From Candidatus Saccharimonadota bacterium (GTDB lineage: Bacteria; Patescibacteriota; Saccharimonadia; Saccharimonadales; UBA4665): a stretch of 32,000 nt of DNA. Each line of letters begins with the position of its first letter. Positions within the stretch are counted from its first letter, which is position 1. The translations under genes were made by a program, and so were the position numbers. The notes below the pieces were generated by a model that was not told the DNA's origin, searched no databases, and saw only the letters and a program-made list of their open reading frames with translations. The DNA is taken from positions 360,001 through 392,000 of the forward strand of contig CP025011.1 of the NCBI GenBank assembly GCA_002952755.1, given 5' to 3'. This document shows, one piece after another, positions 6,788-31,560 of the stretch.

Positions 6788-6861
6788 GGCGCCTTGGCGG
6801 AGTGGTTACGCAGAGGTCTGCAAAACCTTTTACACCGGTTCAATTCCGGTAGGCGCCTCCA
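6788..6861 (+). tRNA. tRNA-Cys (anticodon GCA), CCA encoded
   Basis: Hand-folded cloverleaf: acceptor GGCGCCT/AGGCGCC, anticodon stem GAGGT/ACCTT with loop CTGCAAA, T arm ACCGG-TTCAATT-CCGGT, discriminator T followed by CCA. 74 nt. Confidence 0.9.
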
Positions 6862-6894
6862 ACAGACTATATGTCTGAGGTTGTATACGGCACG

Positions 6895-6980
6895 CGCGGG
6901 TGGTGGAATTGGTAGACACGAGGGACTTAAAATCCCTTGCCTAAACAGCGTGCGGGTTCGATTCCCGCCCCGCGCACCAA
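6895..6980 (+). tRNA. tRNA-Leu (anticodon TAA), type II with long variable arm, CCA encoded
   Basis: Acceptor GCGCGGG/CCCGCGC, anticodon stem AGGGA/TCCCT with loop CTTAAAA, long variable arm, T arm GCGGG-TTCGATT-CCCGC, discriminator A followed by CCA. 86 nt. Confidence 0.9.
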
Positions 6981-7205: not shown

Positions 7206-8327
7206 TTAGGGTTTATTGTTGGGGGCAAGCGATAATACATACTGAGGCCACCATACTCCTGCTTGCGGGGGTGCGGTATTAAGTTGGTGCGGGCCACAGT
7301 TACCATCTGATATACCCGGGTTTTTAATCCACAAGTAGGCATCGGCAAGCTTTTCGTCAGTAGTAAGTGTTGGTTTCTGGCCAAAGGCTCGGCCAGAGGG
7401 GTTGCACCAAGCTTCAGCGCCTGTAGCCGGTCCATTGCCATTTCTACTGGTGTCAATTATGTAGTGTTTGTTAGCAATTTGTTTTGAGATTGCATTGCCG
7501 TAGCTTATGTTTTCGGCTGTTGTGTGAAAGTTGGATACGTTAAGGCTAAAGCCAGTTGCTTTATCGACTCCAGCGCTTTTTAAGCGGTCAGCAATAATGT
7601 TGGCTGGTTCCCAGCCGGGATGGCCGGCATCCAGATAGACAGCGGCTTTTGTCTGGCCCGTAAGGGCGTTCACGGCATAGGCAAGCAATTGCAGATGTCC
7701 AGCTTGCTGGCTTTTCGTATAGCAACTCAGCTGATCTATGGCGTCAGGCTCAATAACGACGATTGCTCGGCGTTTACCAATCCCCGTTGCAAAATTGGTA
7801 ATCCAATTTTTATAGTCGTCGCTATTTGCTGCGCCGCCGCGTGAGTAGCTACCGCAGTCCCTCCCTGGAATATTATAGGCTACCAAGACAGGGATCTGAT
7901 TCGCGGCAAGCGCGTTGGAAACGTATCCATTAGTTGCAGATTGTATATCACCGCTCCACGCTCCAAACCAGTGCGCCATAGGAGTCGCCGCCAGGCTATT
8001 CATCGTGGCGGCGTCTTTGGGGGACTGTGTAGCCCAGGCCAAAGCAGCATGAGTAAGTGATGCATTTGGATCGACATACAAAGAAGCGGACCTATTGATA
8101 GCGGGTGGCCCGCCACTCACCGTCTGGCGTACCGCAGCTGAAGTGTGAGTTACCGAATGAGAAGGAAAAGGCTGTGTTAAAAAGAGCGACCCTTCAACGA
8201 TTACTATTACGGTGATGAGTATTGCCCCAAAACTAACCAAATGGCTCGCGATGAATAGGCGAAAACGGGAGCGACGGCTATTGTTTTTGCGCACGTGCAC
8301 CTGCCATAGTTTTGACTGAAGTGTCAA
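7206..8327 (-). CDS. Glycoside hydrolase family 6 (endoglucanase/cellobiohydrolase-type), N-terminally membrane-anchored
   Basis: GH6 signature-like motifs VLVAYNIPGRDCG and IVVIEPDAI, plus YLDAGHPGW, IDTSRNG, WCNPSGRAFG and YLWIKNPGISDG. N-terminal TM FRLFIASHLVSFGAILITVIVIV. ATG 8327 overlaps the upstream gene by 50 nt; in-frame GTG codons 9 and 11 codons downstream are alternative starts. Confidence 0.85.
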   Translation of the reverse strand: MTLQSKLWQVHVRKNNSRRSRFRLFIASHLVSFGAILITVIVIVEGSLFLTQPFPSHSVTHTSAAVRQTVSGGPPAINRSASLYVDPNASLTHAALAWATQSPKDAATMNSLAATPMAHWFGAWSGDIQSATNGYVSNALAANQIPVLVAYNIPGRDCGSYSRGGAANSDDYKNWITNFATGIGKRRAIVVIEPDAIDQLSCYTKSQQAGHLQLLAYAVNALTGQTKAAVYLDAGHPGWEPANIIADRLKSAGVDKATGFSLNVSNFHTTAENISYGNAISKQIANKHYIIDTSRNGNGPATGAEAWCNPSGRAFGQKPTLTTDEKLADAYLWIKNPGISDGNCGPHQLNTAPPQAGVWWPQYVLSLAPNNKP

Positions 8328-11300
8328 GACGAATCGATTTAGCTGTGTAGAAGGTCACTTTCGAGGCGATACAGAGATAATAAATACCCGATATGAGTAT
8401 CGGGGCATAGGTTCGAGGACTAACGAAAATAAAGTAGTGGGCAGCTAGCGTTACCCAGAGTACTGCAGGACTAAAATTCAAAAAGAATTGCAGTACTCGA
8501 AACGTCGTGTAACGCCTATCTTTACGGACTTTTGTGCCGGTGGGCTGCCAAGACATGTGGTTATTAGATATCACATCGGCAATCGCAAATAAGTGCGCCC
8601 AGCCGTATACCGAGCGTACAGTCCAAGCTTCGACTCCATATATAGATTTATGCCACAATGGGTAGACGATCTGCGTAAATATAAATGCAGGGAATATAAG
8701 GAAGTAGTTAACAAGTGACAATTTGGCCGGAATAGCAATAAGTAAAATGAGCGGTATGATGGGGGTATAGAACGACATCAGGCCTGTCTGAATATAATAA
8801 AAGAAGCCAGACATATAGGATAAACGAGCTCTGAACGACAACTTGGTGTGCCAGAATTTTGCAGAAGAGAGCAGGCTCATAGACCCCATGCACCAGCGGT
8901 ATTGTTGCTTAAAGAAAGCCGGCATGGTCGCGGGGCAAAGACCTTTGGCGAGAACGATCGGTATATAGGTTAAGCTCCATCCCTTCATTCGCAAGTTGAA
9001 ACCAGTATGGACATCTTCCGAATGCTCAATGAGTGCGGTACCGCCGGTACTTTCGAGAGCCTTTCGGCGGTAGACGGCATTGCTACCTACGCAAATAGAG
9101 GCGTTATTGCTCTCTCGGGAGACTTGAGAAAACCGATAAAACAATTCCTGTACGGCTCCAGCACCACGCTCCAACCAGTTTTGATTCGGGGTCACACTAA
9201 AATACTGAGGAGTCTGCACAATGCCTGTCTTTGGGTTCGAAAAGTAGGGGAGCGTTTCGTTTAAGAAGTCGGCTCGCGGTACAAAATCTGCATCAAAAAT
9301 GACAATGAACTCAGAATTCGAGACCCGAAAACCATGCCGTAAGTTGCCGGCTTTTTTAAAGTAACCTCGATCAGGACGTACTTCGTATATAAAGTTATAC
9401 TGTTCGGCCAGAGTCTTTACTTCTGGGCGATCGGCGTCGTCAAGGCAGTAGATAGTGACGCGCCCTTTGTACGCATCAGCCATGGCTGTTATGCCGTCCC
9501 ATGTGTTTTCTAACACACGGAGGTCTTCGCCGGCGTTGGGCAAGAATATATCCACCGATGGGTATACGTCGGGTTTCCAGCTTGCAATCGACGTTTTGTG
9601 TGCCTGTATATCGAAAGCTCGCGTACCTGCATTTACAAAGAATGAAGTGGCATAATAAATAATGTTAAAAGCTAGCACGATAGCCAGACTCCATAGAACT
9701 GGGTGGTGATAGATAAAGAGTGTCATGCTAATTGTGACCCCCGTAAAGCTGATGAGAGAAACCACTAGGAGGAGGCTTAATTTTCGCTTTACATATATGT
9801 ACTTTTCTTTTTCATCTGGTGGTTTAGGTAGCGCTCCTTTATCTGCAGTACCAAACTCTAGTATGCGGTATTGGTTATTGAAAGATATAAATCGGGTGGT
9901 AATCCAGTCGCCAAATCGTGCCGAGATTCGCATGAGCGGAGGTGTGAGCGGGACAGCCAAAAGGCTCAAGCTACCGAGCAGCGCCCAGAATAGCATAAAG
10001 GGTGCAGTGCGATGTGTGAAGAAGCTCGAAACAAAGTCGGCAAGCGTAATGAAGGCGAGGGTAAGGTGAGGCAGGAATAGCTTAAAAGGGAGAGATTTAT
10101 CCTTTTTCGCCTTGGTGCCTTTAGGTGTCACTTTGTAAACGAGTTTTTTTCGCTTAAAAAGGCTCGCAAATGCCAAAAAGAATATCGGCCATGCAGCTAC
10201 GCCAATGTACATTCCTGACCACATAATGCCGCGCTCTTCTTTTGGCCGGATATTAAAGCGCTGCAGCCAGAAACTCATCAGCCCGATGATGACGCTTAGG
10301 GGAATAAAAAGAGCCAAGAAGCTGCCCAGATCCATCTTTGTTGCCTGTATTCCGAGACCAAAGTAGAGGGTGAGACAAATAACACTTAGCGCCATGGCAA
10401 GTCCGGTAAAGTAGTATTGTTGAATAACGAAGTAATACATGGAACGTCGGAGAGACATGGTTTTAAAAAGTTTAAAGCTGTGATTAAAGAGGATATGCAT
10501 ACAACCATATGCCCACCTTTTTTGTTGGTTAAAGTAGGATTTCCAATCTGTGGGGCCCTCGCCAATGGCTAACGCCTGGGGTACGTAGACACTTTCCCAG
10601 CCTTTGGCATGCAGCTTCATACCCGTTATAAGGTCCTCCGTAATATGCGCGCTGTAATGGTCAACACTTTGCAAAGCCTTAACACGAATGACGTGATTGG
10701 CACCAATAAGTAGTGTTGAATTCATCCCTGCCATACCTCGGAGTAAGGGGCCATAAAAACTATAGGTCTGCTGGGCGGCACCGCGCGCAATAATAGAATG
10801 CTTTATGTTGCCGTAAATCTGCGGCGTGCCCACAAATGCAATCTTGGGGTTGCGAAAGAAGCCTAACGTTACCTGTAGGAAGCCTGGGTGAGGAATGAAG
10901 TCGGTATCGATCTCGGCCACGATATCGTAATCGTTACCAACTACGTCGTACCAAGAGTTATGGTTGCCCCCCTTAGTTTTCCGGGCGTATTTGCCCTCGG
11001 GCATATTGTAGTGCTCTTTGCCGGCCCGGCTAAAATGCTTGACGCCGTACTGCTCACATACCTTGATAACTTCGGGGTCGTTACCCTCATCGAGCAACCA
11101 TGTGTCATGTGGATAGCGGGTCTTTACCATGGCAGGTAAGGTTTTATGCAGTAGAGAAATGGACTCTGAGGCAGGTACAAAAGTCGTAATAAACGCCACT
11201 TTGAGTCCTTCTTCAGGCTTATAGTACTTGATAGGTTTAATGTGTGATGCAATGGCCCACAGGAGGACCTTCATAACTATAGGCAGCCAAATGATAAAGC

Positions 11301-11457
11301 TCACAACGGCAAATAGTGCAAAATCACCCACATGCTCCCATCCGTGAAAATTATGCGCAACGTGGCTGAGCCGAAACCAATACACGGCAAATATGACGAC
11401 AGCTGTAAGCGCGCCGCTGGCAAACAATGTGTGTAAAAAGTGCTGACTCCTGTTCAT
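8278..11457 (-). CDS. Tandem (duplicated) cellulose-synthase-like processive glycosyltransferase, two GT2 modules in one 1059-aa polytopic protein
   Basis: Module 1: VAFITTFVP, LLDEGND, EIDTDFIP, ITEDLITG, QQKRWAYG. Module 2: VDIFLPNAGED, CLDDADR, VIFDADFVP, HSEDVHTG, QQYRWCMG. Each module is flanked by its own TM helices. Start set at ATG 11457 (MNRSQHF); the tracked 82-codon extension overlaps the divergent GH16 gene. Confidence 0.85.
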   Translation of the reverse strand: MNRSQHFLHTLFASGALTAVVIFAVYWFRLSHVAHNFHGWEHVGDFALFAVVSFIIWLPIVMKVLLWAIASHIKPIKYYKPEEGLKVAFITTFVPASESISLLHKTLPAMVKTRYPHDTWLLDEGNDPEVIKVCEQYGVKHFSRAGKEHYNMPEGKYARKTKGGNHNSWYDVVGNDYDIVAEIDTDFIPHPGFLQVTLGFFRNPKIAFVGTPQIYGNIKHSIIARGAAQQTYSFYGPLLRGMAGMNSTLLIGANHVIRVKALQSVDHYSAHITEDLITGMKLHAKGWESVYVPQALAIGEGPTDWKSYFNQQKRWAYGCMHILFNHSFKLFKTMSLRRSMYYFVIQQYYFTGLAMALSVICLTLYFGLGIQATKMDLGSFLALFIPLSVIIGLMSFWLQRFNIRPKEERGIMWSGMYIGVAAWPIFFLAFASLFKRKKLVYKVTPKGTKAKKDKSLPFKLFLPHLTLAFITLADFVSSFFTHRTAPFMLFWALLGSLSLLAVPLTPPLMRISARFGDWITTRFISFNNQYRILEFGTADKGALPKPPDEKEKYIYVKRKLSLLLVVSLISFTGVTISMTLFIYHHPVLWSLAIVLAFNIIYYATSFFVNAGTRAFDIQAHKTSIASWKPDVYPSVDIFLPNAGEDLRVLENTWDGITAMADAYKGRVTIYCLDDADRPEVKTLAEQYNFIYEVRPDRGYFKKAGNLRHGFRVSNSEFIVIFDADFVPRADFLNETLPYFSNPKTGIVQTPQYFSVTPNQNWLERGAGAVQELFYRFSQVSRESNNASICVGSNAVYRRKALESTGGTALIEHSEDVHTGFNLRMKGWSLTYIPIVLAKGLCPATMPAFFKQQYRWCMGSMSLLSSAKFWHTKLSFRARLSYMSGFFYYIQTGLMSFYTPIIPLILLIAIPAKLSLVNYFLIFPAFIFTQIVYPLWHKSIYGVEAWTVRSVYGWAHLFAIADVISNNHMSWQPTGTKVRKDRRYTTFRVLQFFLNFSPAVLWVTLAAHYFIFVSPRTYAPILISGIYYLCIASKVTFYTAKSIRLDTSVKTMAGARAQKQ

Positions 11458-11527
11458 CGGTGTGGTAATACAATATACTCGGGGGAGTTGCCTTCCAGAT
11501 TTGATAAAAATAACATGAAATCTTATT

Positions 11528-12406
11528 ATGGTAAAGAGGAATAAGCTTACACTAAGCATAATGCTGCTACTCATCGTAAGTACGGTAGTGGCTTTTTGCG
11601 TGTCGGGAAAGCACTCAACGAGCCCCAGGGCGACGGTTTCGAGCAATTCCCGTAAACTCCTGTTTGATGATGAATTTAGCGGTTCAGCCTTGAATACTGC
11701 CAAGTGGAATACTTGTTACGACTGGTACGATGCGCAGTATAATGGCTGTACTAATGCAGGCAACCACGAACTTGAGTGGTATGCCCCAAGCCAAGTAAGC
11801 ATTCGGGACGGCAATTTGCTTTTGACCGCTCAAAAGCAAACAGTAATCGGCCAGAACGCATCAAATGCTCGTAATGGGACCACGATAGAGTCGTATCCCT
11901 TTGCATCTGGTATGGTTTCGACGGGCAAACTCTCGTCAGTAGGATCACCTAAATGGAGCGGAAACTACGGGTACTACGAAATGCGTGCAGCGGTTCCTTC
12001 GGGCGCTGGTATATGGCCAGCGTTTTGGCTCCTTCCGGTAAATGATGAGTGGCCACCTGAGATAGACGTTATGGAGCTTCTGGGCGACAACCCAACCCAA
12101 ATATTAATGACTTATTTTTGGCCCAACGGCGGCTCCTCGCCCGCCAAAGATTCGACCACCTATAGTGGTACCAATTTTTCACAAGGGTGGCATACCTACG
12201 CAATCGATTGGGAACCCCGCGCAATCACGTGGTACATAGATGGGGTTGTCCGAAAGGCTGTACAAGGAGTACACGTGCCTGCCACCCAAATGCAAATTAT
12301 TGCTAATTTAGCTGTTGGTGGCACTTTGCCCGGCAATCCAGATAACGCGACTATATTTCCTCAAGCTATGAAGATTGACTACATCCGCGTATACAATTCC
12401 AAGTAA
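11528..12406 (+). CDS. Glycoside hydrolase family 16 (beta-glucanase; laminarinase/lichenase type), secreted or anchored
   Basis: Catalytic motif EIDVMELLG (matches E-x-D-x-x-E), WPAFWLLP, and an N-terminal hydrophobic segment LTLSIMLLLIVSTVVAFCV. The start is uncertain: ATG 11528 is embedded in a promoter-like hexamer. Confidence 0.85.
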   Translation: MVKRNKLTLSIMLLLIVSTVVAFCVSGKHSTSPRATVSSNSRKLLFDDEFSGSALNTAKWNTCYDWYDAQYNGCTNAGNHELEWYAPSQVSIRDGNLLLTAQKQTVIGQNASNARNGTTIESYPFASGMVSTGKLSSVGSPKWSGNYGYYEMRAAVPSGAGIWPAFWLLPVNDEWPPEIDVMELLGDNPTQILMTYFWPNGGSSPAKDSTTYSGTNFSQGWHTYAIDWEPRAITWYIDGVVRKAVQGVHVPATQMQIIANLAVGGTLPGNPDNATIFPQAMKIDYIRVYNSK

Positions 12407-20319: not shown

Positions 20320-21138
20320 ATGAAACATAAGCGGATCTTGCGTGGTGCAATCATAGGTATTGCATTGTTGACAATGGGCATCGGGGCTGGCGTATCCGCG
20401 CAGAATGTCACTCAAGGGTACAAGCCGAGCGGCGATTTGCAAAATGGTATGATTGTGCGCTTTAAGCCGGGTGAGCCGGGTACGGTTGAGGCGCTAGATC
20501 AGAAGAATGAGCTGAGCATGCTGGGCATTACGGTTGCTTCATCGGATTCACCCGTTTCGCTGTCCGATCCTAATCAGTCGCAGATTTTCGTCGCGACCTA
20601 TGGTGAGTACGACACATTGGTAAGTACCCAGAACGGGCCGATCAAAGCAGGCGATCGTATCTCTATCTCATCAGTCAACGGCGTAGGTATGAAGGCTGAC
20701 GATCAGCATCGGGTGATACTGGGTAAAGCAATACAGAACTTTGCCGATAGCTCCAATGCCGAAGAGCACATCAAGCTGGGGGGCGGCCAGACAGTGGCGG
20801 TTGGCCGTATTGTAGTGGACGTTGGCGTTGCCCGTAATCCTGCGTATATTGGCGACATCACTCCCGGAGTGCCGGTATTTTTGGCGAAAGCGGCGCGCGC
20901 AGTAAGCGGTAGGTCGGTTACTGCACTGAGGATATATGCTGGGCTTGGCGTACTTGTTTTGGCGTTGATTATTGCAGGTATCATTCTGTTTGGCGGCGCG
21001 CGCAGCGGCATGAATGCGGTGGGGCGTAACCCGTTGGCTAAAAAGTCGATCTTCCGGAGCATGGTTACGGTGGTGCTTATGGCTTTAATTGTTGTGGTGT
21101 TGGGTATATTTGCGTTATATTTATTACTGAAGATTTAA
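20320..21138 (+). CDS. Secreted-domain protein with a C-terminal two-helix hairpin resembling an ATP synthase c subunit but lacking the carboxylate
   Basis: Signal peptide MKHKRILRGAIIGIALLTMGIGAGVSA-QN, then about 170 aa of hydrophilic domain, then TM (AGLGVLVLALIIAGIILFGG), loop ARSGMNAVGRNPLAKK, and TM (SIFRSMVTVVLMALIVVVLGIFALYLLLKI). Neither helix contains Asp or Glu. Confidence 0.7.
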   Translation: MKHKRILRGAIIGIALLTMGIGAGVSAQNVTQGYKPSGDLQNGMIVRFKPGEPGTVEALDQKNELSMLGITVASSDSPVSLSDPNQSQIFVATYGEYDTLVSTQNGPIKAGDRISISSVNGVGMKADDQHRVILGKAIQNFADSSNAEEHIKLGGGQTVAVGRIVVDVGVARNPAYIGDITPGVPVFLAKAARAVSGRSVTALRIYAGLGVLVLALIIAGIILFGGARSGMNAVGRNPLAKKSIFRSMVTVVLMALIVVVLGIFALYLLLKI

Positions 21139-21157
21139 TGCTTATGCTTAGCACAGG

Positions 21158-21278
21158 AGGACCTACGTACTTGGCACATTTTGGCTCGCAAGCTGTGCTC
21201 CGCACTCGCCGTACCTTAAGTACGACTCCTTTGCGGTGCTCGCTTGCAAACCAAACTGCACTCAAGTACGTAGGTCCT
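21158..21278 (+). repeat. 121-nt imperfect palindrome / extended intercistronic RNA hairpin
   Basis: Perfect 16-bp outer stem AGGACCTACGTACTTG (21158-21173) / CAAGTACGTAGGTCCT (21263-21278). Inner helices: 21181-21193/21242-21254 (11 of 13 positions paired), 21197-21204/21232-21239 (7 of 8 paired), and 21210-21214/21220-21224 (CGTAC/GTACG, loop CTTAA). Confidence 0.7.
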
Positions 21279-21310
21279 GGCGCGTCCGAGATCATAGAGA
21301 GCGCAGAGAC

Positions 21311-21928
21311 ATGAGTATTTGGTGGTTGGCGCTGGTGATCGGGGCGATTGTGTCGATGGGGAGCGGCTTTATTTGGCTGGCGCTGCAGCTTGGAGGAGCC
21401 AAGCCGCGAAAAAAAGCTGCCGATTCGTTTGAAGATGCCGCCAAGGAAGACGTTGAGCATATCTTTAACGAAGAGTTTCGTGAGGAGTTGCGCAACCGTG
21501 GACGGTTGCATTTTGAGAAGATTTTGGGCGAAAACGCAATGTTTTTGCAGCAGGATTTACGCCTGACTACAGCTCAGCTCAACGACTACATGAAGGGCGA
21601 GATCAGCAAAGATTTGAAGGAAGCTTTCGCTAATTACCAGAACGCGATTACTGATGCCAAGCAGTTAGCGGTGGAATCTATCGAGAAAACCAAGACGGCC
21701 ATCGACGAAGAGCGGGCGGGATTGGTCGCCCTGCTGGAAAAAGAAGTCGGCGAAGAAAAAGAGCGCCGCATTCAACAGTTTGATACGCACTTGGCTCAGA
21801 TTGTGAACCATTACGTACTGGCGGCCATTGGCAATCAGATTGACTTGAATGATCAGCTGGAGTACATCCTGAACGAACTGGAGGCCAACAAAGCGGCTAT
21901 TATCAAGGATGTCCGCGGTGGAGCATAA
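21311..21928 (+). CDS. atpF: ATP synthase b-like peripheral stalk subunit (single N-terminal TM plus long charged helix)
   Basis: Start at ATG 21311 (MSIWWLALVIGAIVSMGSGFIWLALQL), followed by about 170 aa of E/K/A/Q-rich helical sequence. The assignment rests on architecture and position before the delta-like gene, not on strong motifs. Confidence 0.6.
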   Translation: MSIWWLALVIGAIVSMGSGFIWLALQLGGAKPRKKAADSFEDAAKEDVEHIFNEEFREELRNRGRLHFEKILGENAMFLQQDLRLTTAQLNDYMKGEISKDLKEAFANYQNAITDAKQLAVESIEKTKTAIDEERAGLVALLEKEVGEEKERRIQQFDTHLAQIVNHYVLAAIGNQIDLNDQLEYILNELEANKAAIIKDVRGGA

Positions 21929-22493
21929 ACAGGACGCTGCCATAAGTCGGCAATTCGTACTACCGACACTTATTTTTGGCTTGCCTGAAGTGCGACGCCT
22001 GAAGAGAGAGTTAGAATCGCTCGATGATTTTTTACGTCAGAGTACTATCCGTGACCCGGGCCGACAGCCTCAATTGCCGCGTTTGAGCCGGCTGTGCGAG
22101 GCATTGGCTGCCGAGAACGGTCTTAATTTACTACAGGAGGCAGACCGTCAGCAGCTCCAGGCTTTTTTAGGTTCTCTTGAGGGTCAAGCACCAACGTTGC
22201 ATATCAGTTTTGCGGCTGATCCATCATCGGCCTTTACGGCTAAGATCGTTACCTGGCTGCGGACGCAGATTCATCCCTACGCACTGCTGCAGGTAGGGCT
22301 GCAGCCTACTATCGCCGCAGGGTGTATTGTGCGGACAGCAAATAAAGAATTTGACTTAAGCTTGGGGCAGGAATTTATCAAGCATGAAAATCTGTTGCTG
22401 CAGGCTTTTGAAGCGGAGGCGGTTCTGCCGGTGGCTCAAGCAGCTGAAGCCGCTCCGCCGCAACCTACTATTCCTACGGCGGAGGTTGCTTAA
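21909..22493 (+). CDS. atpH: ATP synthase delta (OSCP)-like subunit, divergent
   Basis: The C-terminal part (LHISFAADPSSAFTAKIVTWLRTQIHPYALLQVGLQPTIAAGCIVRTANKEFDLSL) follows the OSCP C-terminal domain pattern. The N-terminus is not recognisable and there is a Pro/Ala-rich tail. Overlaps the b-like gene by 20 nt. Confidence 0.55.
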   Translation: MSAVEHKQDAAISRQFVLPTLIFGLPEVRRLKRELESLDDFLRQSTIRDPGRQPQLPRLSRLCEALAAENGLNLLQEADRQQLQAFLGSLEGQAPTLHISFAADPSSAFTAKIVTWLRTQIHPYALLQVGLQPTIAAGCIVRTANKEFDLSLGQEFIKHENLLLQAFEAEAVLPVAQAAEAAPPQPTIPTAEVA

Positions 22494-22494
22494 G

Positions 22495-24029
22495 ATGAGC
22501 GACAACAAGCATTTTGACCAACTCGTTGCCAGTGGTAAACCTGTTGGCGAAGTCGTGGCCATAGATCGTTTTATGATCAAGGTCAAAGGTATGCAGCCTT
22601 GTAATTTGCACGCTTTGATTATGTTCGAGGATGGCAGCAAAGGGTACGTGCACCACATATTCGACACTTACATGATTATTTTGCATCTCGGCACCAAGTC
22701 TGTGCGCGTGGGTTCTGCCTGCGTGCTGCAATATGAGCAGTTAGTGACTAAAGTGGGCATGGATTTTGTGGGCCGAGTTGTATCGGTAACTGGCGAACCC
22801 TTGGACGGCAAAGGACCGATCGCGGCCGATGGTGTCTTGCCAGTTTTTTCACCCGCACCGATGTTATACGAGCGAGAATTGCTCGATAAGCCGCTTGAGA
22901 CGGGGGTCACCGTTCTGGATACGCTTTTTGCCCTGATGCGCGGTCAGCGTATTGCTGTCCTGGGCGATGGGAAGTCGGGTAAGAGCACGCTGGCGACGCA
23001 GCTGGCGATCAACCAAAAAAATACCGATATTACCACCGTGTACGTGATGATTGCCAAACGCCGTACCGATATCGACACGCTTATTTCCCGGCTAGAAGCC
23101 AGTGATGCACTCAAGAAAACAATCGTGGTAGTCTCCACTATGTCTGATTCGCTGGTACAAAGCTATCTGGCGCCATATGTCGGCTGCGCGTTGGCCGAAT
23201 ATATCTGGCAACACAAAGATCAGGACGCGTTGATTATCTATGACGACCTCACTGCTCACGCCCACGCTTACCGCGAAATGGCCTTGCTCACAGGCAGCAG
23301 TCCTGGCCGCGACAGTTACCCTGGCGATATGTTTTACGTCCACTCCAGCCTACTGGAGCGTGCTGGCAAGTTAAACCGCAACCACAAAACGCTCACCAGC
23401 ATCCCGATGGTCTTTGCCGCTAGCGGCGACATTGCCGCGTACCTGCCCACCAACGTCATGTCGATTACCGATGGCCAGTGGATTCTAGACATGAAGATTT
23501 TCCGCGATACGATGCGCCCAGCCGTGAATGCCGGTTTGAGCGTCTCACGTGTCGGTGGCCGCGGCCAAACCAAGCGTCAGCAAGATCAAGCCGGGGCGTT
23601 GTTTAAGGCGATTACGGCGCACCATACGGCTCAGGAATTCGCTCGTTTTGGATCGGAGCTGGCAGTGAGTGCACAGACGGATCTGGTGCGCGGGGAGCTC
23701 CTCTACAAATTACTCAACCAGATTCCCGGTGAAAACTATAACTTTAAAGAGCAAACGCTGATGCTCGATATTGCTCTCAATATCTCTATTGACGAACAGA
23801 TTAACGTTGAAGGACTCAAGAAAAATGTTCGCGAGATGGCCGTTAAGCTCAAAGATGACGACAGCAATTTCGACCAACTCCGCGACGAACTTAAGAAGGC
23901 CAGTTTAATTAGCATTGCCGCCAAACCTGCGCCAACTCCAGCTGCTCCTGGCGAGCCCGCAAACACCGACAAAGAAAAAGAAAAGGACAAGAAGAAAGAC
24001 GACAAAAAAGACAAAGAAAAGGCCGCAGC

Positions 24030-24033
<4 letters not shown>
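22495..24033 (+). CDS. atpA: F-type ATPase alpha subunit with a K/D/E-rich C-terminal tail
   Basis: ATG 22495 lies 1 nt after the delta-like stop. GDGKSGKST P-loop, ALIIYDDLTAHAHAYREMALL, PGRDSYPGDMFYVHSSLLERAGKL, SITDGQWIL. Confidence 0.9.
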
Positions 24034-26514
<2,481 letters not shown>

Positions 26515-27712: not shown

Positions 27713-27844
27713 AGCACCTCAAGTTAAGTATTATATTATAGCATAGGGCGGTAGATATGTAAATAACTAAACTGTAGTGAATAGATGGTAAGTCGCTATG
27801 CCTTGATTGTATATAATAAGGTATTATGTTATAGTAATATATCT

Positions 27845-30565
27845 ATGTCAAATGGTGAAGTGGCTGGCGATAGCCTATCTGGAGCGGCTCCTTCTGAGGT
27901 GCTGCCTTTCGATGCACGCGAGGATATTCTTAAGTGGGATAGTCAGGAAAACGCGTTTAGCCTCTTTATGGGTGCAGGCTTAGGCGTGGGTGGTTTTTTT
28001 GAACAGCTTCTTGCGTCCGAATTGCCTTTGGCGGCAAGTATTAGTGGAGTGGCTGGGGTAGGTCTAGCGGCACTTGGCCTGCGTAAAGCTCTGCAGTCCA
28101 GGAGAGAAGGTCGTTATCTCCACCAGAGAGGGCAAGAACGGATTGGCGAGTCTTATGAAGTGCATAGCTTTAACGATGGCCTGATTGTTCGTTGGCTGAC
28201 CGAAGACCGACCAGGTGAGGATATTCTGCCAAGGCTCGAAGCACTCCTGGATGAAGCAACTTTTATAAAGATAGCTGTAGACTCTAGCATTATCGAGCGG
28301 CTCCTCCCAAAAGATGAAGAAATGCCGCCTGAATGTACCAAAAAGCTTTGGAGCCAACATGTGGCCGAAAAGAGAGGCTCAGGAGTGGAAGTTCGAGATC
28401 CCATAAGGGATGAGGTGATTCTCACTACTACAGGTACATTACGGGTTTTACTTGCTGAGCATAAACGGTACGCTAATGTCCGAACGCTTGATACGCTAAT
28501 GACAAAATTAGCAGAGCTCGACCACCACTCCCCGATCGTAAAAGCATATAAAGACTACGAGCGCAATCAGAGCCTGCAGCAGGAAAAGACATTGCGCATA
28601 GCGCTAGCCAAGATTGGCATGTATCTGGATAAAACGGAGAGCTTCCCTAATGAGGCTACGCAGCGTCAATCCAGCTATAGAGGAGTAGAAAACCGTAATG
28701 GGATGAGTCGCGCAATGGCAGGTGCCGTAACGGGCCGGCTTCTGACCGAGAATGGCGGAAAAGAAGTACTATGGACGGAGCCCAAAAGAGTATGGAAACA
28801 GGACGCCTACCAGGCGCTCGGGCTCCAGAGTGCTGCATACGCCCAGAGGCTTATCGATAACCCTACGCCATCTACCCGGCTTGGGCGTGAGGCGCGGCAA
28901 AAAGCATTAGAATTAGCTGCCTGCCAGTTACTTATAACCAATCCTCAGGAAGCACGACTTGTGCCGTCGCCTTCGGGGGATATGCTGCTTGAGCGTATAC
29001 CCTCCGACCCGCTTTCCGATCACAGCCCTAAAACCCCTCACCGCCCTATTGAGCAGAGTCTTACCTATAACACCCGGCGCAAGCGACAGGCGGCATTGGC
29101 GTTGGCATTCGCGGGAGGTTGCACGGCATTAGGTGGGCTGATTGCGTCGCTCCCTCGTCCTGATGATGACCCCCCGCGCGCCACGGTTCGGATCGGCGAG
29201 GTCTCTGCACACGAGCCAAATACTGCGGAGTGGCTCATACGTCCATCGAATAAGAATGCATTACGTCCGGACGGTTATTGGGTACAAGGAGTGGCATCAA
29301 AACTTATAAACGGAGAATGGGTCGTCGACTATGATAATACGGCCTCGATAGCATATCTGCCTACGACGCCAAAAAATAGCGCACCCAATATACAGGTTGT
29401 TGATCAGCAACGGTGGAAAAGCGCCACAGGCACATACATATTTAAGAATGGCATAGAGGTCAAGATCCCTGTGCTCGAAGGTACCGAACCGGTGGCGGCG
29501 GATGTGGGTGGAAGACCCGTGCAGTTACAGACAGACAGAGACAATACCTTTACACTACTTCTCCCCCCGAACGCATCGCAAAACGCAAAGCTTGAGTACT
29601 GGCTCGCATCGACCGACTCTGCTCATAGGGCAAAAGCGCTTCACCCGATTACCGTTAAGGGAGGACCGGCATTCGATCCGCAGCAAGTGGCCGCCGTCTG
29701 GAATGCTCATGTGCCACCCAGCGATCTTCCTATGCCGCTTCGGCGGGCAAATCTGGTGCGGGATACATTTCGGTACACACTCGACCCGTTGCATGGCAGA
29801 AGTATAAATAGCTATAAAAATTGGACAGAAATAACAGAGCACTACTTTAGAAACGGCGAAGCGGTATGTAATTTGGCTGCTACAGAGTTGGCTCTTGCAA
29901 ATCCGGCCGAACTTAACGTTGCACAGGGGTATTATCTACGTTCTGATGGGGACCAGTCGGCGCTTGCAAAGCATGCGGGTCACGACTGGAATGTCACAAA
30001 AGATGGGCAGAGAATAGATTCAACGCCCATTCGTAGCAACGGACAATATGACGATTACTTTGACGCAAAAGTGCTCCCCAATCCTGAGGCAAAGCCAGTG
30101 CCATCCATGCTGACGAAATTTGCACACTCAGCAGGTGGCTGGGCGCTTGGTTTGGTGGTTGCTGATGCCGCTGGATATGCGCTGTATAAAAGTCGTCGCC
30201 AACTCCGCAAGCCGGTAGATTTCTTAAGACGATCGCGTATTGCGGCTCTTGAGGATGATTTAGTGGCTATGGGGAGTGAGAACATTGGTCTTGCTTATGC
30301 GACGATCCAAAATACGCTATACGACAAATCAGGCGATCCATTAGCTTCTGCGCTTGGCGATGTTGTGCCACTGGCCGCAGATGATTTTCTCGCCAAACTT
30401 CCTATACAGCCCGCCCTTTTAGACAGAGAAACAACCGCTAAGCTACGCGACCGGCGAAAGGCTACGTCGGATGTAGGCGAGCAACAGCAAATCAGGCTTG
30501 CCGAGAACCTGATCCGGGTAGTGCTCAAGCTTGAAAAACGTAAGCATCAATCCAGCGCGATGTAA
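27845..30565 (+). CDS. Polytopic membrane protein with a transglutaminase-like cysteine protease core domain
   Basis: FRYTLDP ... GEAVCNLAATELA ... AQGYY ... HAGHDWNV ... RIDSTP gives the Cys-His-Asp transglutaminase-core pattern, flanked by TM segments (ALALAFAGGCTALGGLIASL; GGWALGLVVADAAGYALY). Start chosen at ATG 27845 because 27720-27844 is AT-rich and promoter-like; the tracked start is 27785. Confidence 0.6.
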   Translation: MSNGEVAGDSLSGAAPSEVLPFDAREDILKWDSQENAFSLFMGAGLGVGGFFEQLLASELPLAASISGVAGVGLAALGLRKALQSRREGRYLHQRGQERIGESYEVHSFNDGLIVRWLTEDRPGEDILPRLEALLDEATFIKIAVDSSIIERLLPKDEEMPPECTKKLWSQHVAEKRGSGVEVRDPIRDEVILTTTGTLRVLLAEHKRYANVRTLDTLMTKLAELDHHSPIVKAYKDYERNQSLQQEKTLRIALAKIGMYLDKTESFPNEATQRQSSYRGVENRNGMSRAMAGAVTGRLLTENGGKEVLWTEPKRVWKQDAYQALGLQSAAYAQRLIDNPTPSTRLGREARQKALELAACQLLITNPQEARLVPSPSGDMLLERIPSDPLSDHSPKTPHRPIEQSLTYNTRRKRQAALALAFAGGCTALGGLIASLPRPDDDPPRATVRIGEVSAHEPNTAEWLIRPSNKNALRPDGYWVQGVASKLINGEWVVDYDNTASIAYLPTTPKNSAPNIQVVDQQRWKSATGTYIFKNGIEVKIPVLEGTEPVAADVGGRPVQLQTDRDNTFTLLLPPNASQNAKLEYWLASTDSAHRAKALHPITVKGGPAFDPQQVAAVWNAHVPPSDLPMPLRRANLVRDTFRYTLDPLHGRSINSYKNWTEITEHYFRNGEAVCNLAATELALANPAELNVAQGYYLRSDGDQSALAKHAGHDWNVTKDGQRIDSTPIRSNGQYDDYFDAKVLPNPEAKPVPSMLTKFAHSAGGWALGLVVADAAGYALYKSRRQLRKPVDFLRRSRIAALEDDLVAMGSENIGLAYATIQNTLYDKSGDPLASALGDVVPLAADDFLAKLPIQPALLDRETTAKLRDRRKATSDVGEQQQIRLAENLIRVVLKLEKRKHQSSAM

Positions 30566-31560
30566 TCGAAGCCGAAGGTCTGTACTGCCGGTGCGGCGTT
30601 ACCGCTGCAAATGTCAAAGCCAGACGTCGTACGCGTAACGTAGTATTGCAGGTCTGCCGCATAAGAGCCGACCGGGGTAATGACTATGTGCGGCGTGCTG
30701 CTGAATTTTTGGCTGAATACGACACTGGCAAAACATCCAGCTGGCGGCGAGCTGCCGGTGTTAATCGTGATTGACCCCGAAGTATCCGACCCGCTGAGCG
30801 ACACCGTGCCGCCGCCGCCCACGGCCGTCCCTTTGCTGATAGATGGAATAGTACCACCGGCGGTAATATGGTGGGTGAGGTTCAGGTCGCCGTTGAGTTG
30901 CAGCGAGCCGGTATTCACGGCAGAGGCCGTTAGAGTGCCGCTAAAGCTAGTGCTTCCCACTACGCTCAGTCCATTTTTGATATTCAAGCCGCCAGTAAGA
31001 TTGAGCGTGCCGGCCACGCTCAGGTTGTTGACCTGCGTGTCGCCGAGCTGTGTTATGCCTGACACGCTCAGGTCGCTGAGTGATAGACTGCCTCCCACAC
31101 GTAATGATCCGGCCACCTCCAGATTACTGCGAACAAGTACGCCTCCCGAAAAAACAGCATTAGCCTGCACGGTAAGAATCTGCTTAGGATTGCCCACAGT
31201 AACGTCAGTAGTGGCAAGTTGCTTGAGATCGTCCTGTGATAATCCTTGCGAGGTGAGTGTGTGCTGTGCGGTCTGTTTGCTTTTGGCGATGCTTATGATC
31301 AAAACGCCTACGGCTATCACGATGACCAATATAAAAAGCAGTAAGTAAATATTGAATTTACGCCAGAATTTCTTAATAAACGATTGTTTAGGTTCCTCGG
31401 GGGCGGTGCTTGGTTGCTGACCGCCAGTGGTATCGGTTAGATTCGGGTCGGTGCTGCTGCCGTTCTGCGGACCCGGGGTGGCTTTGGTGTCGCCCTCGGT
31501 TTGTTGTTCCAGCGAGTGCACGTCATTACCAGATTCGGATTGTACTTGGGATGGGTCCAT
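30547..31560 (-). CDS. Surface protein: disordered N-terminus, one TM, beta-solenoid repeats and a possible H-type-lectin-like C-terminal domain
   Basis: TM FNIYLLLFILVIVIAVGVLIISIA. Repeats such as LEVAGSLRVGGSLSLSDLSVSGITQLGDTQVNNLSVAGTLNLTGGLNIKNGLSVVG. C-terminus VVFSQKFSSTPHIVITPV...YYVTRTTSGFDIC...FDYIAL. Confidence 0.6.
   Translation of the reverse strand: MDPSQVQSESGNDVHSLEQQTEGDTKATPGPQNGSSTDPNLTDTTGGQQPSTAPEEPKQSFIKKFWRKFNIYLLLFILVIVIAVGVLIISIAKSKQTAQHTLTSQGLSQDDLKQLATTDVTVGNPKQILTVQANAVFSGGVLVRSNLEVAGSLRVGGSLSLSDLSVSGITQLGDTQVNNLSVAGTLNLTGGLNIKNGLSVVGSTSFSGTLTASAVNTGSLQLNGDLNLTHHITAGGTIPSISKGTAVGGGGTVSLSGSDTSGSITINTGSSPPAGCFASVVFSQKFSSTPHIVITPVGSYAADLQYYVTRTTSGFDICSGNAAPAVQTFGFDYIALD

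Follow-up and report, generated by a model that had tools for sequence, protein, structure and literature searches.

The stretch of DNA analysed here (the window) comprises 32,000 nucleotides of Candidatus Teamsevenus rhizospherense, a member of the Saccharimonadota (contig CP025011.1, positions 360,001 to 392,000), and carries a cluster of seven genes that resemble those of F-type ATP synthases. The first of them, on the forward strand at window positions 20320-21138, specifies a protein of 272 aa, designated c', in which a signal peptide and an outer domain are joined to a membrane hairpin like that of subunit c. This protein very probably descends from subunit c, and stands outside the functional subunit c family because the defining carboxylate is missing. 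The cluster as a whole is a second, paralogous F1-like ATPase (F1') and not a crippled ATP synthase, because a complete canonical operon is present in the same genome. The balance of evidence tips slightly towards c' being the membrane subunit of a non-pumping F1-like ATPase, with the output of the enzyme delivered through the outer domains of c' to the cell surface.

A sequence-only reading of the open reading frame (ORF) had proposed a Sec-type signal peptide with a VSA-Q cleavage-like site, a hydrophilic domain and two hydrophobic helices joined by a short basic loop, and this layout is borne out by structure prediction and by homologues in 312 GTDB species. The AlphaFold2 model, built on 64 homologues, has a mean pLDDT (predicted local distance difference test) of 87.7 and contains a signal helix (residues 3-21), a beta-rich region (33-172), a short helix (186-196) and two long helices (202-236 and 238-271). 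The signal peptide occupies residues 1-27 (20320..20400, +). Its junction reads ...GAGVSA/QNVTQGY in the window protein (the slash marks the predicted cut), and the form A-x-A/Q-N-V-T-Q-G-Y is near-invariant in alignments of the c' family, which fits cleavage by signal peptidase; the signal peptide of c' is probably cut at VSA/Q. The extracytoplasmic beta-rich domain follows (residues 28-185; 20401..20874, +), and then a short amphipathic helix with a conserved G-V-P-x-F-L motif (residues 186-196; 20875..20907, +), which precedes the first membrane helix and probably sits on the outer surface of the membrane. The two-helix membrane hairpin takes up the remainder (residues 199-272; 20914..21135, +). 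Its loop, G-R-N-P-L-A-K, is the best-conserved stretch of the entire protein, and residues G235-R236-N237-P238 are invariant in both a 64-sequence full-length alignment and a 57-sequence hairpin alignment. Since the signal peptide and the outer domain lie outside and the loop carries five positive charges, the hairpin most likely has the topology of a c subunit, as was first suggested from the positive-inside rule, with both termini outside and the loop cytoplasmic.

F-type subunit c (AtpE; PF00137, COG0636) and c' have in common the two-helix hairpin and a short basic loop of the form R-(Q/N)-P-x-x-K. The early suggestion of a likeness in the loop was correct, as G-R-N-P of c' aligns on R-Q-P of c subunits, and R-N-P is the mitochondrial form of the c-subunit loop. 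Both genes lie directly 5' of homologues of atpF-atpH-atpA-atpG-atpD-atpC. Unlike F-type c, c' has gained a signal peptide and an outer domain of about 160 aa, has lost the helix-2 carboxylate, has a reduced Gly motif and no partner a subunit, and scores far under the family cutoffs. The absence of acidic residues noted at the outset extends to the family at the carboxylate position: neither helix of the window hairpin contains any Asp or Glu, the column aligned with the carboxylate is acidic in 0 of 266 hairpins and holds L, I, V or M in 266 of 266 (L in 145, I in 54, V in 24, M in 13), and all alignments place the carboxylate at the Leu of M-A-L-I-V. Near the start of helix 2, one polar position is Gln in about half of the 266 hairpins and Glu or Asp in 14 of them, and conserved Arg residues are present. 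The helix-1 GxGxGxG motif, rightly described as vestigial, is not kept; scattered Gly residues (A-G ... G ... G, columns 19-20, 26 and 30) stand at irregular spacing.

Profile comparisons of the hairpin point weakly but consistently to subunit c. When 57 diverse c' hairpins were searched singly against Pfam and NCBIfam, the NCBIfam c-subunit model NF005521 was the top family, matched by 28 of the 57 (the next family by 10), and PF00137 was matched by five (best E 8.4e-4). The c-subunit models are the only families matched repeatedly and in register by c' hairpins. Searched against the PDB at E-values up to 10, the hairpin profile gave a single match, the Acetobacterium woodii c2 subunit (4bem_A), aligned loop on loop, and Foldseek matched the modelled hairpin to dozens of F-type c subunits in the PDB (TM-score up to 0.88, root-mean-square deviation (rmsd) 1.3-2.2 A, 19-26% identity). 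A reference alignment of ten well-known c subunits, which itself recovers F-type c from the PDB with E-values down to 1e-32, served for profile-profile comparison. The 57-sequence hairpin alignment gave an hhalign probability of 8.5% against it, over 20 loop columns. With 266 hairpins the score was 17.8 (E 0.006, probability 6%), compared with 9.6 +/- 1.7 for column-permuted controls, of which none or one in 200 reached the real score; with 153 diverse hairpins it was 21.6 (E 9e-4), and none of 150 permuted controls scored as high. The main-family comparisons overall thus span probabilities of 6-23% and E-values of 0.006-0.0009, at a z of about 5-7 over the permutations. Real hairpins also scored about 5 bits above reversed or shuffled hairpins on a c-subunit hidden Markov model (HMM). 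An exhaustive HMM search with the hairpin profile gave 755 representatives at 50% identity, with only c' family members among the 150 matches listed, so that the rank of c subunits is not visible there.

The clearest link to subunit c comes from a more distant branch of proteins of about 257 aa. They have the same architecture as c', with the loop G-x-E-A-x-G-R-N-P-L-A, and are homologous to it from end to end (pairwise E 5e-18, with 28.5% identity over 235 aa). Hairpins of this branch align with c subunits end to end (hhalign probability 71.8%, E 3.5e-5, 74 columns), and seven of nine members match at least one NCBIfam c-subunit model, in register. The position of the carboxylate is non-acidic in this branch too. 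One member has independently been labelled 'F0F1-type ATP synthase membrane subunit c' by JGI (Joint Genome Institute). Short members of the c' family (89-210 aa) were considered as domain-less intermediates and rejected, as they are fragments.

No family in Pfam or PHROGs accounts for the outer domain, whether the whole protein or the domain alone is searched. Foldseek against BFVD gave matches to predicted viral proteins with E-values down to 2e-8 and an rmsd of about 3 A over some 150 columns, among them a preneck appendage protein, a tail protein and a DUF2190 protein; one match carries a Major tropism determinant (Mtd) N-terminal domain. In the PDB the matches are phage capsid decoration proteins (best E 1.3e-3, weaker than those in BFVD). 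On the predicted structure, the outer domain shares a fold with the N-terminal domains of phage tail-fibre and appendage proteins and with capsid decoration proteins. The common fold covers c' residues of about 30-175 and extends to fibre and preneck-appendage N-terminal domains and to DUF2190/gpD-type decoration domains; the phage domains differ in having no detectable sequence similarity to c', and the c' domain is fused to the membrane hairpin of a cellular ATPase. In phages such modules are typically homotrimeric attachment or cement domains, and by analogy c' may employ its outer domain as phages do.

The six genes that follow c', all on the forward strand, correspond to a peripheral stalk and an F1 sector. 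They comprise b' (21311..21928; 205 aa, peripheral-stalk b-like, with one N-terminal membrane helix and a long helix), delta' (21909..22493; 194 aa, delta/OSCP-like), alpha' (22495..24033; 512 aa; PF00006, E 1.4e-65), gamma' (24030..24887; 285 aa; PF00231, E 3e-29), beta' (24884..26191; 435 aa, with a short C-terminus; PF00006, E 5e-63) and epsilon' (26188..26514; 108 aa, beta-sandwich only; PF02823 over residues 29-106). The start codon of alpha' was taken from the published annotation (382495 on the contig). The b' and delta' genes have overlapping stop and start codons, as do adjacent genes all the way from alpha' to epsilon', and the start of alpha' lies one base past the stop of delta'. 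The gene after epsilon' is convergent, so the operon ends at 26514. Neither atpB nor an ordinary atpE is found among the window ORFs.

The two stalk subunits are distant from their canonical counterparts. The b' protein matches the NCBIfam model for F0F1 subunit B with an E-value of 4.4e-4, far under the cutoff, and its profile found no b subunit in the PDB. The delta' sequence alone has no Pfam match, while ten of the 12 PDB matches of its profile (E up to 0.13) are C-terminal domains of OSCP/delta (E 0.006-0.13); judged from its sequence profile, delta' is a true delta/OSCP relative. The remaining subunits are recognisable and fall short of the equivalog cutoffs: alpha' scores 385-407 bits against NCBIfam atpA cutoffs of 484-554 (385 vs 484 for TIGR00962), beta' 421 vs 463 (TIGR01039), gamma' 98 vs 194 (TIGR01146) and epsilon' 46 vs 67. 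FliI/SctN, which belong to the same ATPase superfamily, score well against alpha' and beta'. The beta' sequence retains the P-loop GGAGVGKT and the catalytic motif GERIREG, of the form GER(I/T)REG; the P-loops are intact, as is the arginine-finger region (R-P-A-V-N) of alpha', so that F1' looks like an active ATPase. The subunits also differ from canonical ones in outline. The Lys/Glu/Asp-rich C-terminal tail of alpha' (window 23950-24030) is absent from canonical alpha, and relatives differ greatly in the length of their alpha' (ORFs of about 1.4 to 2.2 kb). The beta' protein has 435 aa vs 465 aa in the canonical copy of the same genome, and epsilon' has 108 aa vs 143, with a 27-aa N-terminal extension and without the regulatory C-terminal helices.

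In the published gene table of Ca. T. rhizospherense (PMC6031116; genome of 1.45 Mb), the entries for the F1 genes of the window equal their window coordinates with exactly 360,000 added: 382495-384033 for alpha', 384030-384887 for gamma', 384884-386191 for beta' and 386188-386514 for epsilon'. The table also records a complete canonical atpBEFHAGDC operon at 1,008,673-1,015,327, about 630 kb from the window, with products of 264 (atpB), 72 (atpE), 178 (atpF), 132 (atpH), 517 (atpA), 290 (atpG), 465 (atpD) and 143 aa (atpC), all of whose assignments are rated 'reliable'. An unannotated ORF of 111 aa lies between the canonical atpA and atpG and another of 90 aa beside atpB (PMC6031116). Scores for KEGG orthology (KO) terms are about twofold higher for the canonical copies (775, 875 and 318 bits) than for the window copies (442, 521 and 96 bits). 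In the same table (PMC6031116), the KOs for alpha, beta, gamma and epsilon appear three times each and those for c, b and delta once, and the organism may hold a third F1-like set. Hence the claim that c' occupies the atpB/atpE slot holds for this second operon and fails for the genome as a whole, where real atpB and atpE genes lie elsewhere. As far as that table goes, the canonical atpE disposes of the idea of an ATP synthase with a dead rotor, and leaves intact that of a c derivative with an F1 of its own; the notion of a c-subunit derivative therefore survives as a carboxylate-less relative of subunit c, and not as part of the organism's ATP synthase. In three other complete genomes of Saccharimonadales, a, b and c are each encoded once and alpha, beta and gamma twice, and TM7x and Southlakia have a single canonical set. 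Several bins of order CAILAD01 carry alpha, beta, gamma and epsilon genes without a, b or c; judged from these F1Fo gene counts, the pattern is probably the signature of the variant operon alone.

Homologues of c' in Saccharibacteria form at least 509 clusters at 90% identity, all annotated as hypothetical, and the relatives in the 312 GTDB species were found with one genome scanned per species. The loci of the best 80 of these 312 species, nearly all with Saccharibacteria titles, were surveyed over 10 kb on either side. In every sufficiently flanked locus, the F1' genes lie beside c' and the order c'-b'-delta'-alpha'-gamma'-beta'-epsilon' is kept, with c' identity down to 40%; the few loci with other or unclassified titles have the same gene order. 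Long contigs with c' homologues at 50-58% identity carry the same seven genes. No a subunit and no second alpha/beta pair were found within 10 kb of the 80 c' loci.

The branch of about 257 aa is larger still, with at least 1,885 clusters when grouped at 90% identity. Those of its members that carry a name belong to Candidatus Levybacteria, and in these and other contigs its gene stands first in the same order of seven genes, among quite different neighbours. Because the linkage recurs in two deep lineages within the candidate phyla radiation (CPR) with unrelated neighbours, it speaks for c' as a subunit of the complex rather than a passenger. The expectation that the family, if unrelated to ATPases, would usually be found away from their genes is contradicted by the main family and the branch of about 257 aa, and is borne out in one small subgroup, designated (ii), which is described below. 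A conserved protein of 312 aa that lies 5' of the Levybacteria operon was considered as a hidden a subunit and rejected, as it has no membrane helix. In two Levybacteria loci, genes with matches to 23S_rRNA_IVP (four-helix-bundle) are inserted among the b-like, delta-like and alpha genes (L094, 11684-13196; L095, 6565-8077).

Giant fibre-like proteins occur beside c' family members in several lineages. Those beside the ATPase-linked branch of about 257 aa contain the phage tailspike maturation domains Peptidase_G2, Peptidase_S74 and PTL_trimer. Four of the giant genes, in loci of Levybacteria type, are divergent to a c-like/F1-like operon (L091, 1-8309; L095, 1-2949; L094, 1-4361; L090, 1-9885; all on the minus strand); across the four, matches to PTL_trimer, Peptidase_G2, Peptidase_S74 and Laminin_G_3 were recorded, as were N-terminal matches of MerR/HTH_17 type. 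Locus L090 also has a prepilin peptidase gene near its giant Laminin_G_3 ORF. The members of subgroup (ii) (L087, 10001-10843; L088, 128-928; L089, 4848-5681) belong to about 22 close clusters, or 48 matches when distant ones are included, and adjoin rplU and a gene for a giant membrane-anchored fibre-like protein. They have a conserved Glu or Asp in helix 1 (an I-E-G motif), in the column of E. coli cA24, and end in Y-L-I-L-W.

Among known systems, the closest in design are the 'F1-like X0' ATPases of mycoplasmas, where non-respiratory Type 2 and Type 3 enzymes comprise an extra, fast-evolving set of subunits alpha, beta, gamma and epsilon with unrelated membrane partners, and the Type 2 enzyme powers gliding in Mycoplasma mobile (Beven et al. 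2012, PMC3369863). Like F1', these sets exist besides a genuine F1Fo and have no a subunit, no ordinary c and fast-evolving F1 subunits. One of the X0 partner proteins combines a signal peptide and a large region with a two-helix hairpin at its C-terminus (PMC3369863), the same layout as c'. The two systems differ in that the mycoplasma clusters are without b and delta, both of which are kept in the F1' cluster, and in that the 12-helix membrane protein of the mycoplasmas has no counterpart in the window operon. No match was found between c', b' or delta' and the NCBIfam MSC_06xx models, and scores against MSC_0618/0619/0622 and MMOB1660/1670 are well under their cutoffs (beta' 368 vs 570; alpha' 250 vs 520 and 331 vs 600; gamma' 13 vs 95); the canonical atpA/atpD models give alpha' and beta' higher scores than the mycoplasma models do. 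F1' thus differs from the known F1-like sets in keeping b and delta and in having a membrane partner traceable to subunit c.

F1-like ATPases have also been described in Omnitrophota, where the beta subunit of Saccharimonadia falls in the same clade and a role in attachment or motility was proposed (2023, PMC10066038). The passages of that paper on alpha/beta phylogeny and gene neighbourhood contain no mention of a c-like subunit; giant Laminin_G_3 ORFs are described there for Omnitrophota, and locus L090 lies near one. The Saccharimonadales operon does not adjoin type IV pilus genes in the loci examined. The N-ATPase (atpDCQRBEFAG) differs from the F1' cluster in gene order and in that the latter is without a and without a carboxylate-bearing c, and scores against the alt_F1F0 models are low (alpha' 315 vs 750, beta' 387 vs 752, gamma' 24 vs 282). 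No description of the c' subunit was found in the literature searched, and papers on soil and sludge Saccharibacteria count the variant genes simply as F-type ATPase.

How such a complex might work can be outlined from its parts. As there is neither an a subunit nor a carboxylate, it cannot move ions or make ATP. The loop of real c-rings binds the foot of gamma/epsilon. In the proposed mechanism, alpha'3beta'3 would hydrolyse ATP and turn or torque gamma'epsilon', which would rest on a c' oligomer that is probably a ring, while the b'/delta' stalk would hold the catalytic head. The outer domains of c' would then pass work to the cell surface instead of to an ion gradient. In evolutionary terms, c' would have kept the hairpin and the R-N-P loop, lost the carboxylate, and acquired a signal peptide together with a beta domain that faces outwards. 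That c' forms a ring, that it turns, that it touches gamma'/epsilon' and that it acts on a target at the surface are all plausible extrapolations from the architecture.

Several results weigh against this interpretation. The profile check suggested early on was negative for the window protein, which has no Pfam match, PF00137 included; the five relatives that do match that family are below threshold, the only NCBIfam match of the window protein is one c-subunit model at E 0.003 (17.5 bits vs a cutoff of 122), and its relatives, at 17-22 bits against cutoffs of 44-128, reach no curated cutoff. For hairpins of the window type the hhalign probability is 6-9%, and the confident part is the loop alone. 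Fold matches of helical hairpins to c subunits are rather unspecific, and a published structure-based annotation places type IV secretion pilins in the same ECOD group as c subunits. A fixed stator is not universal, as locus L090 has a short c-alpha-gamma-beta-epsilon cluster without the b/delta stalk, and the neighbourhoods of subgroup (ii) contain no ATPase genes. Lastly, the structural relatives of the outer domain are typically trimeric, so that a fit to a ring requires a subunit number divisible by three; rings of 9, 12 or 15 would suit trimeric outer domains.

An alternative in which c' does not turn, and its oligomer merely tethers F1' to the membrane, is unlikely but carries some weight. 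In that case the target of the ATPase would be a cytoplasmic or export substrate, and the complex would be held to the wall or surface layer by the outer domain. With neither an a subunit nor a carboxylate, no membrane rotor is needed; the peripheral stalk is missing from one cluster (L090), and the good scores of FliI/SctN against alpha' and beta' are in keeping with such a role. Against this, the loop that would bind gamma/epsilon is the most conserved part of c', and the full central stalk, together with a peripheral stalk in most clusters, is the equipment of a rotary enzyme.

The surface-output reading can be taken further, to an F1-like ATPase with a c' oligomer that forms a new cell-surface motor or assembly engine of CPR bacteria. 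This is a speculative and improbable extension, in which the outer domains of c' would dock the giant trimeric fibre- or tailspike-like proteins, and ATP hydrolysis would turn, pull or install an appendage that engages host cells.

The same fibre-like neighbours bear on a further possibility, considered quite improbable, that three c' hairpins stand under a single outer-domain trimer and provide a platform for surface fibres that is coupled only loosely to the ATPase. The phage fibre, appendage and decoration proteins to which the outer domain is structurally related are typically trimeric, giant proteins with fibre-like character and tailspike domains adjoin family members in several lineages, and subgroup (ii) occurs without ATPase genes. 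A loosely coupled trimer sits poorly with the conservation of the c-like hairpin and its R-N-P loop and with strict operon linkage in two large branches, and the two views would be compatible if trimers stood on a ring of 9, 12 or 15 subunits.

The sequence-only reading had offered, as its alternative, an unrelated two-helix anchor that simply shares a transcript with the ATPase genes; its resemblance to c would then be convergent or compositional. No family threshold is reached, the main-family hhalign probability is only 6-23%, and hairpins readily match c subunits in fold space. Yet permutation controls reach the real score never or once, reversed or shuffled hairpins score lower on the c-subunit HMM, the end-to-end alignment of the branch of about 257 aa is at 72% probability, and no family other than c-subunit models is matched repeatedly and in register. 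Moreover, the gene stands at the exact atpE position in two deep lineages, and F1 linkage is found in every main-family locus with sufficient flanks as well as in the branch of about 257 aa, making an unrelated anchor very unlikely. E. coli subunit c can function with its carboxylate moved to the A24 position, and it might be supposed that c' carries ions via another site, together with the canonical a subunit, in an alternative ion-coupled ATPase, given the polar position early in helix 2, the conserved Arg residues and the helix-1 acid of subgroup (ii); but the main family has no acid at either site, the helix-1 acid is confined to a subgroup unlinked to ATPase genes, the canonical operon has its own c and an a-like gene is in no cluster, which leaves this the remotest of the readings.

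If c' is what it appears to be, many annotated 'ATP synthases' of the ultra-small CPR bacteria may be surface machines, and a large share of CPR genes for alpha, beta, gamma and epsilon would belong to a machine unable to couple to ions; metabolic reconstructions should count the variant operon separately. A c derivative with a surface domain would be the first recognisable membrane partner for the non-respiratory F1-like ATPases, and the F1'/c' system would bridge true F1Fo and the mycoplasma F1-like X0 as a natural intermediate. The c' family would also provide a natural experiment, in which a c-type hairpin and the gamma/epsilon interface are kept without ion translocation. Should the surface-engine reading be true, this would be an F-type ATPase with mechanical output outside the cell. 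Cultivated Saccharibacteria exist and genetics is established in the phylum (PMC10633639).

The spacer between c' and b' (21139-21310) is 172 nt long here, compared with about 32 nt in most relatives, and contains a hairpin element of about 120 nt (21158..21279, +). On folding, the spacer has a minimum free energy of -70 kcal/mol (z -4.1), and the outer stem of the hairpin is a perfect 15-nt inverted repeat (21159-21173 and 21263-21277). The closest relatives (L007, L011, L013, L016 and L018) retain the hairpin and show compensatory changes in its stem. The hairpin has no match in Rfam. It could set the ratio of c' to b' expression, or be a small mobile insertion. One assembly annotates an ORF of 58 aa (21138-21314) as a gene, which was rejected as it is unconserved and overlaps this hairpin. 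Promoter and terminator scans gave results no better than shuffles.

Just 3' of the operon lies a gene for a membrane protein of 926 aa (27785-30565, +) that has no Pfam family, and beyond it one for a 337-aa protein (30547-31560, -) with an N-terminal membrane helix, fibre-like G-x-L-x-V-x-G repeats and a weak match to DUF6480 (E 0.007); the two are not conserved beside the operon in relatives. Upstream, a polysaccharide cluster extends over 7206-12406, with genes for a member of the GH6 cellulase family (7206-8327, -), for a protein of 1141 aa that has two GT2/cellulose-synthase-like modules (8278-11703, -) and for a glucanase of family GH16 (11528-12406, +). Genes for tRNA-Cys and tRNA-Leu are located at 6788-6979.

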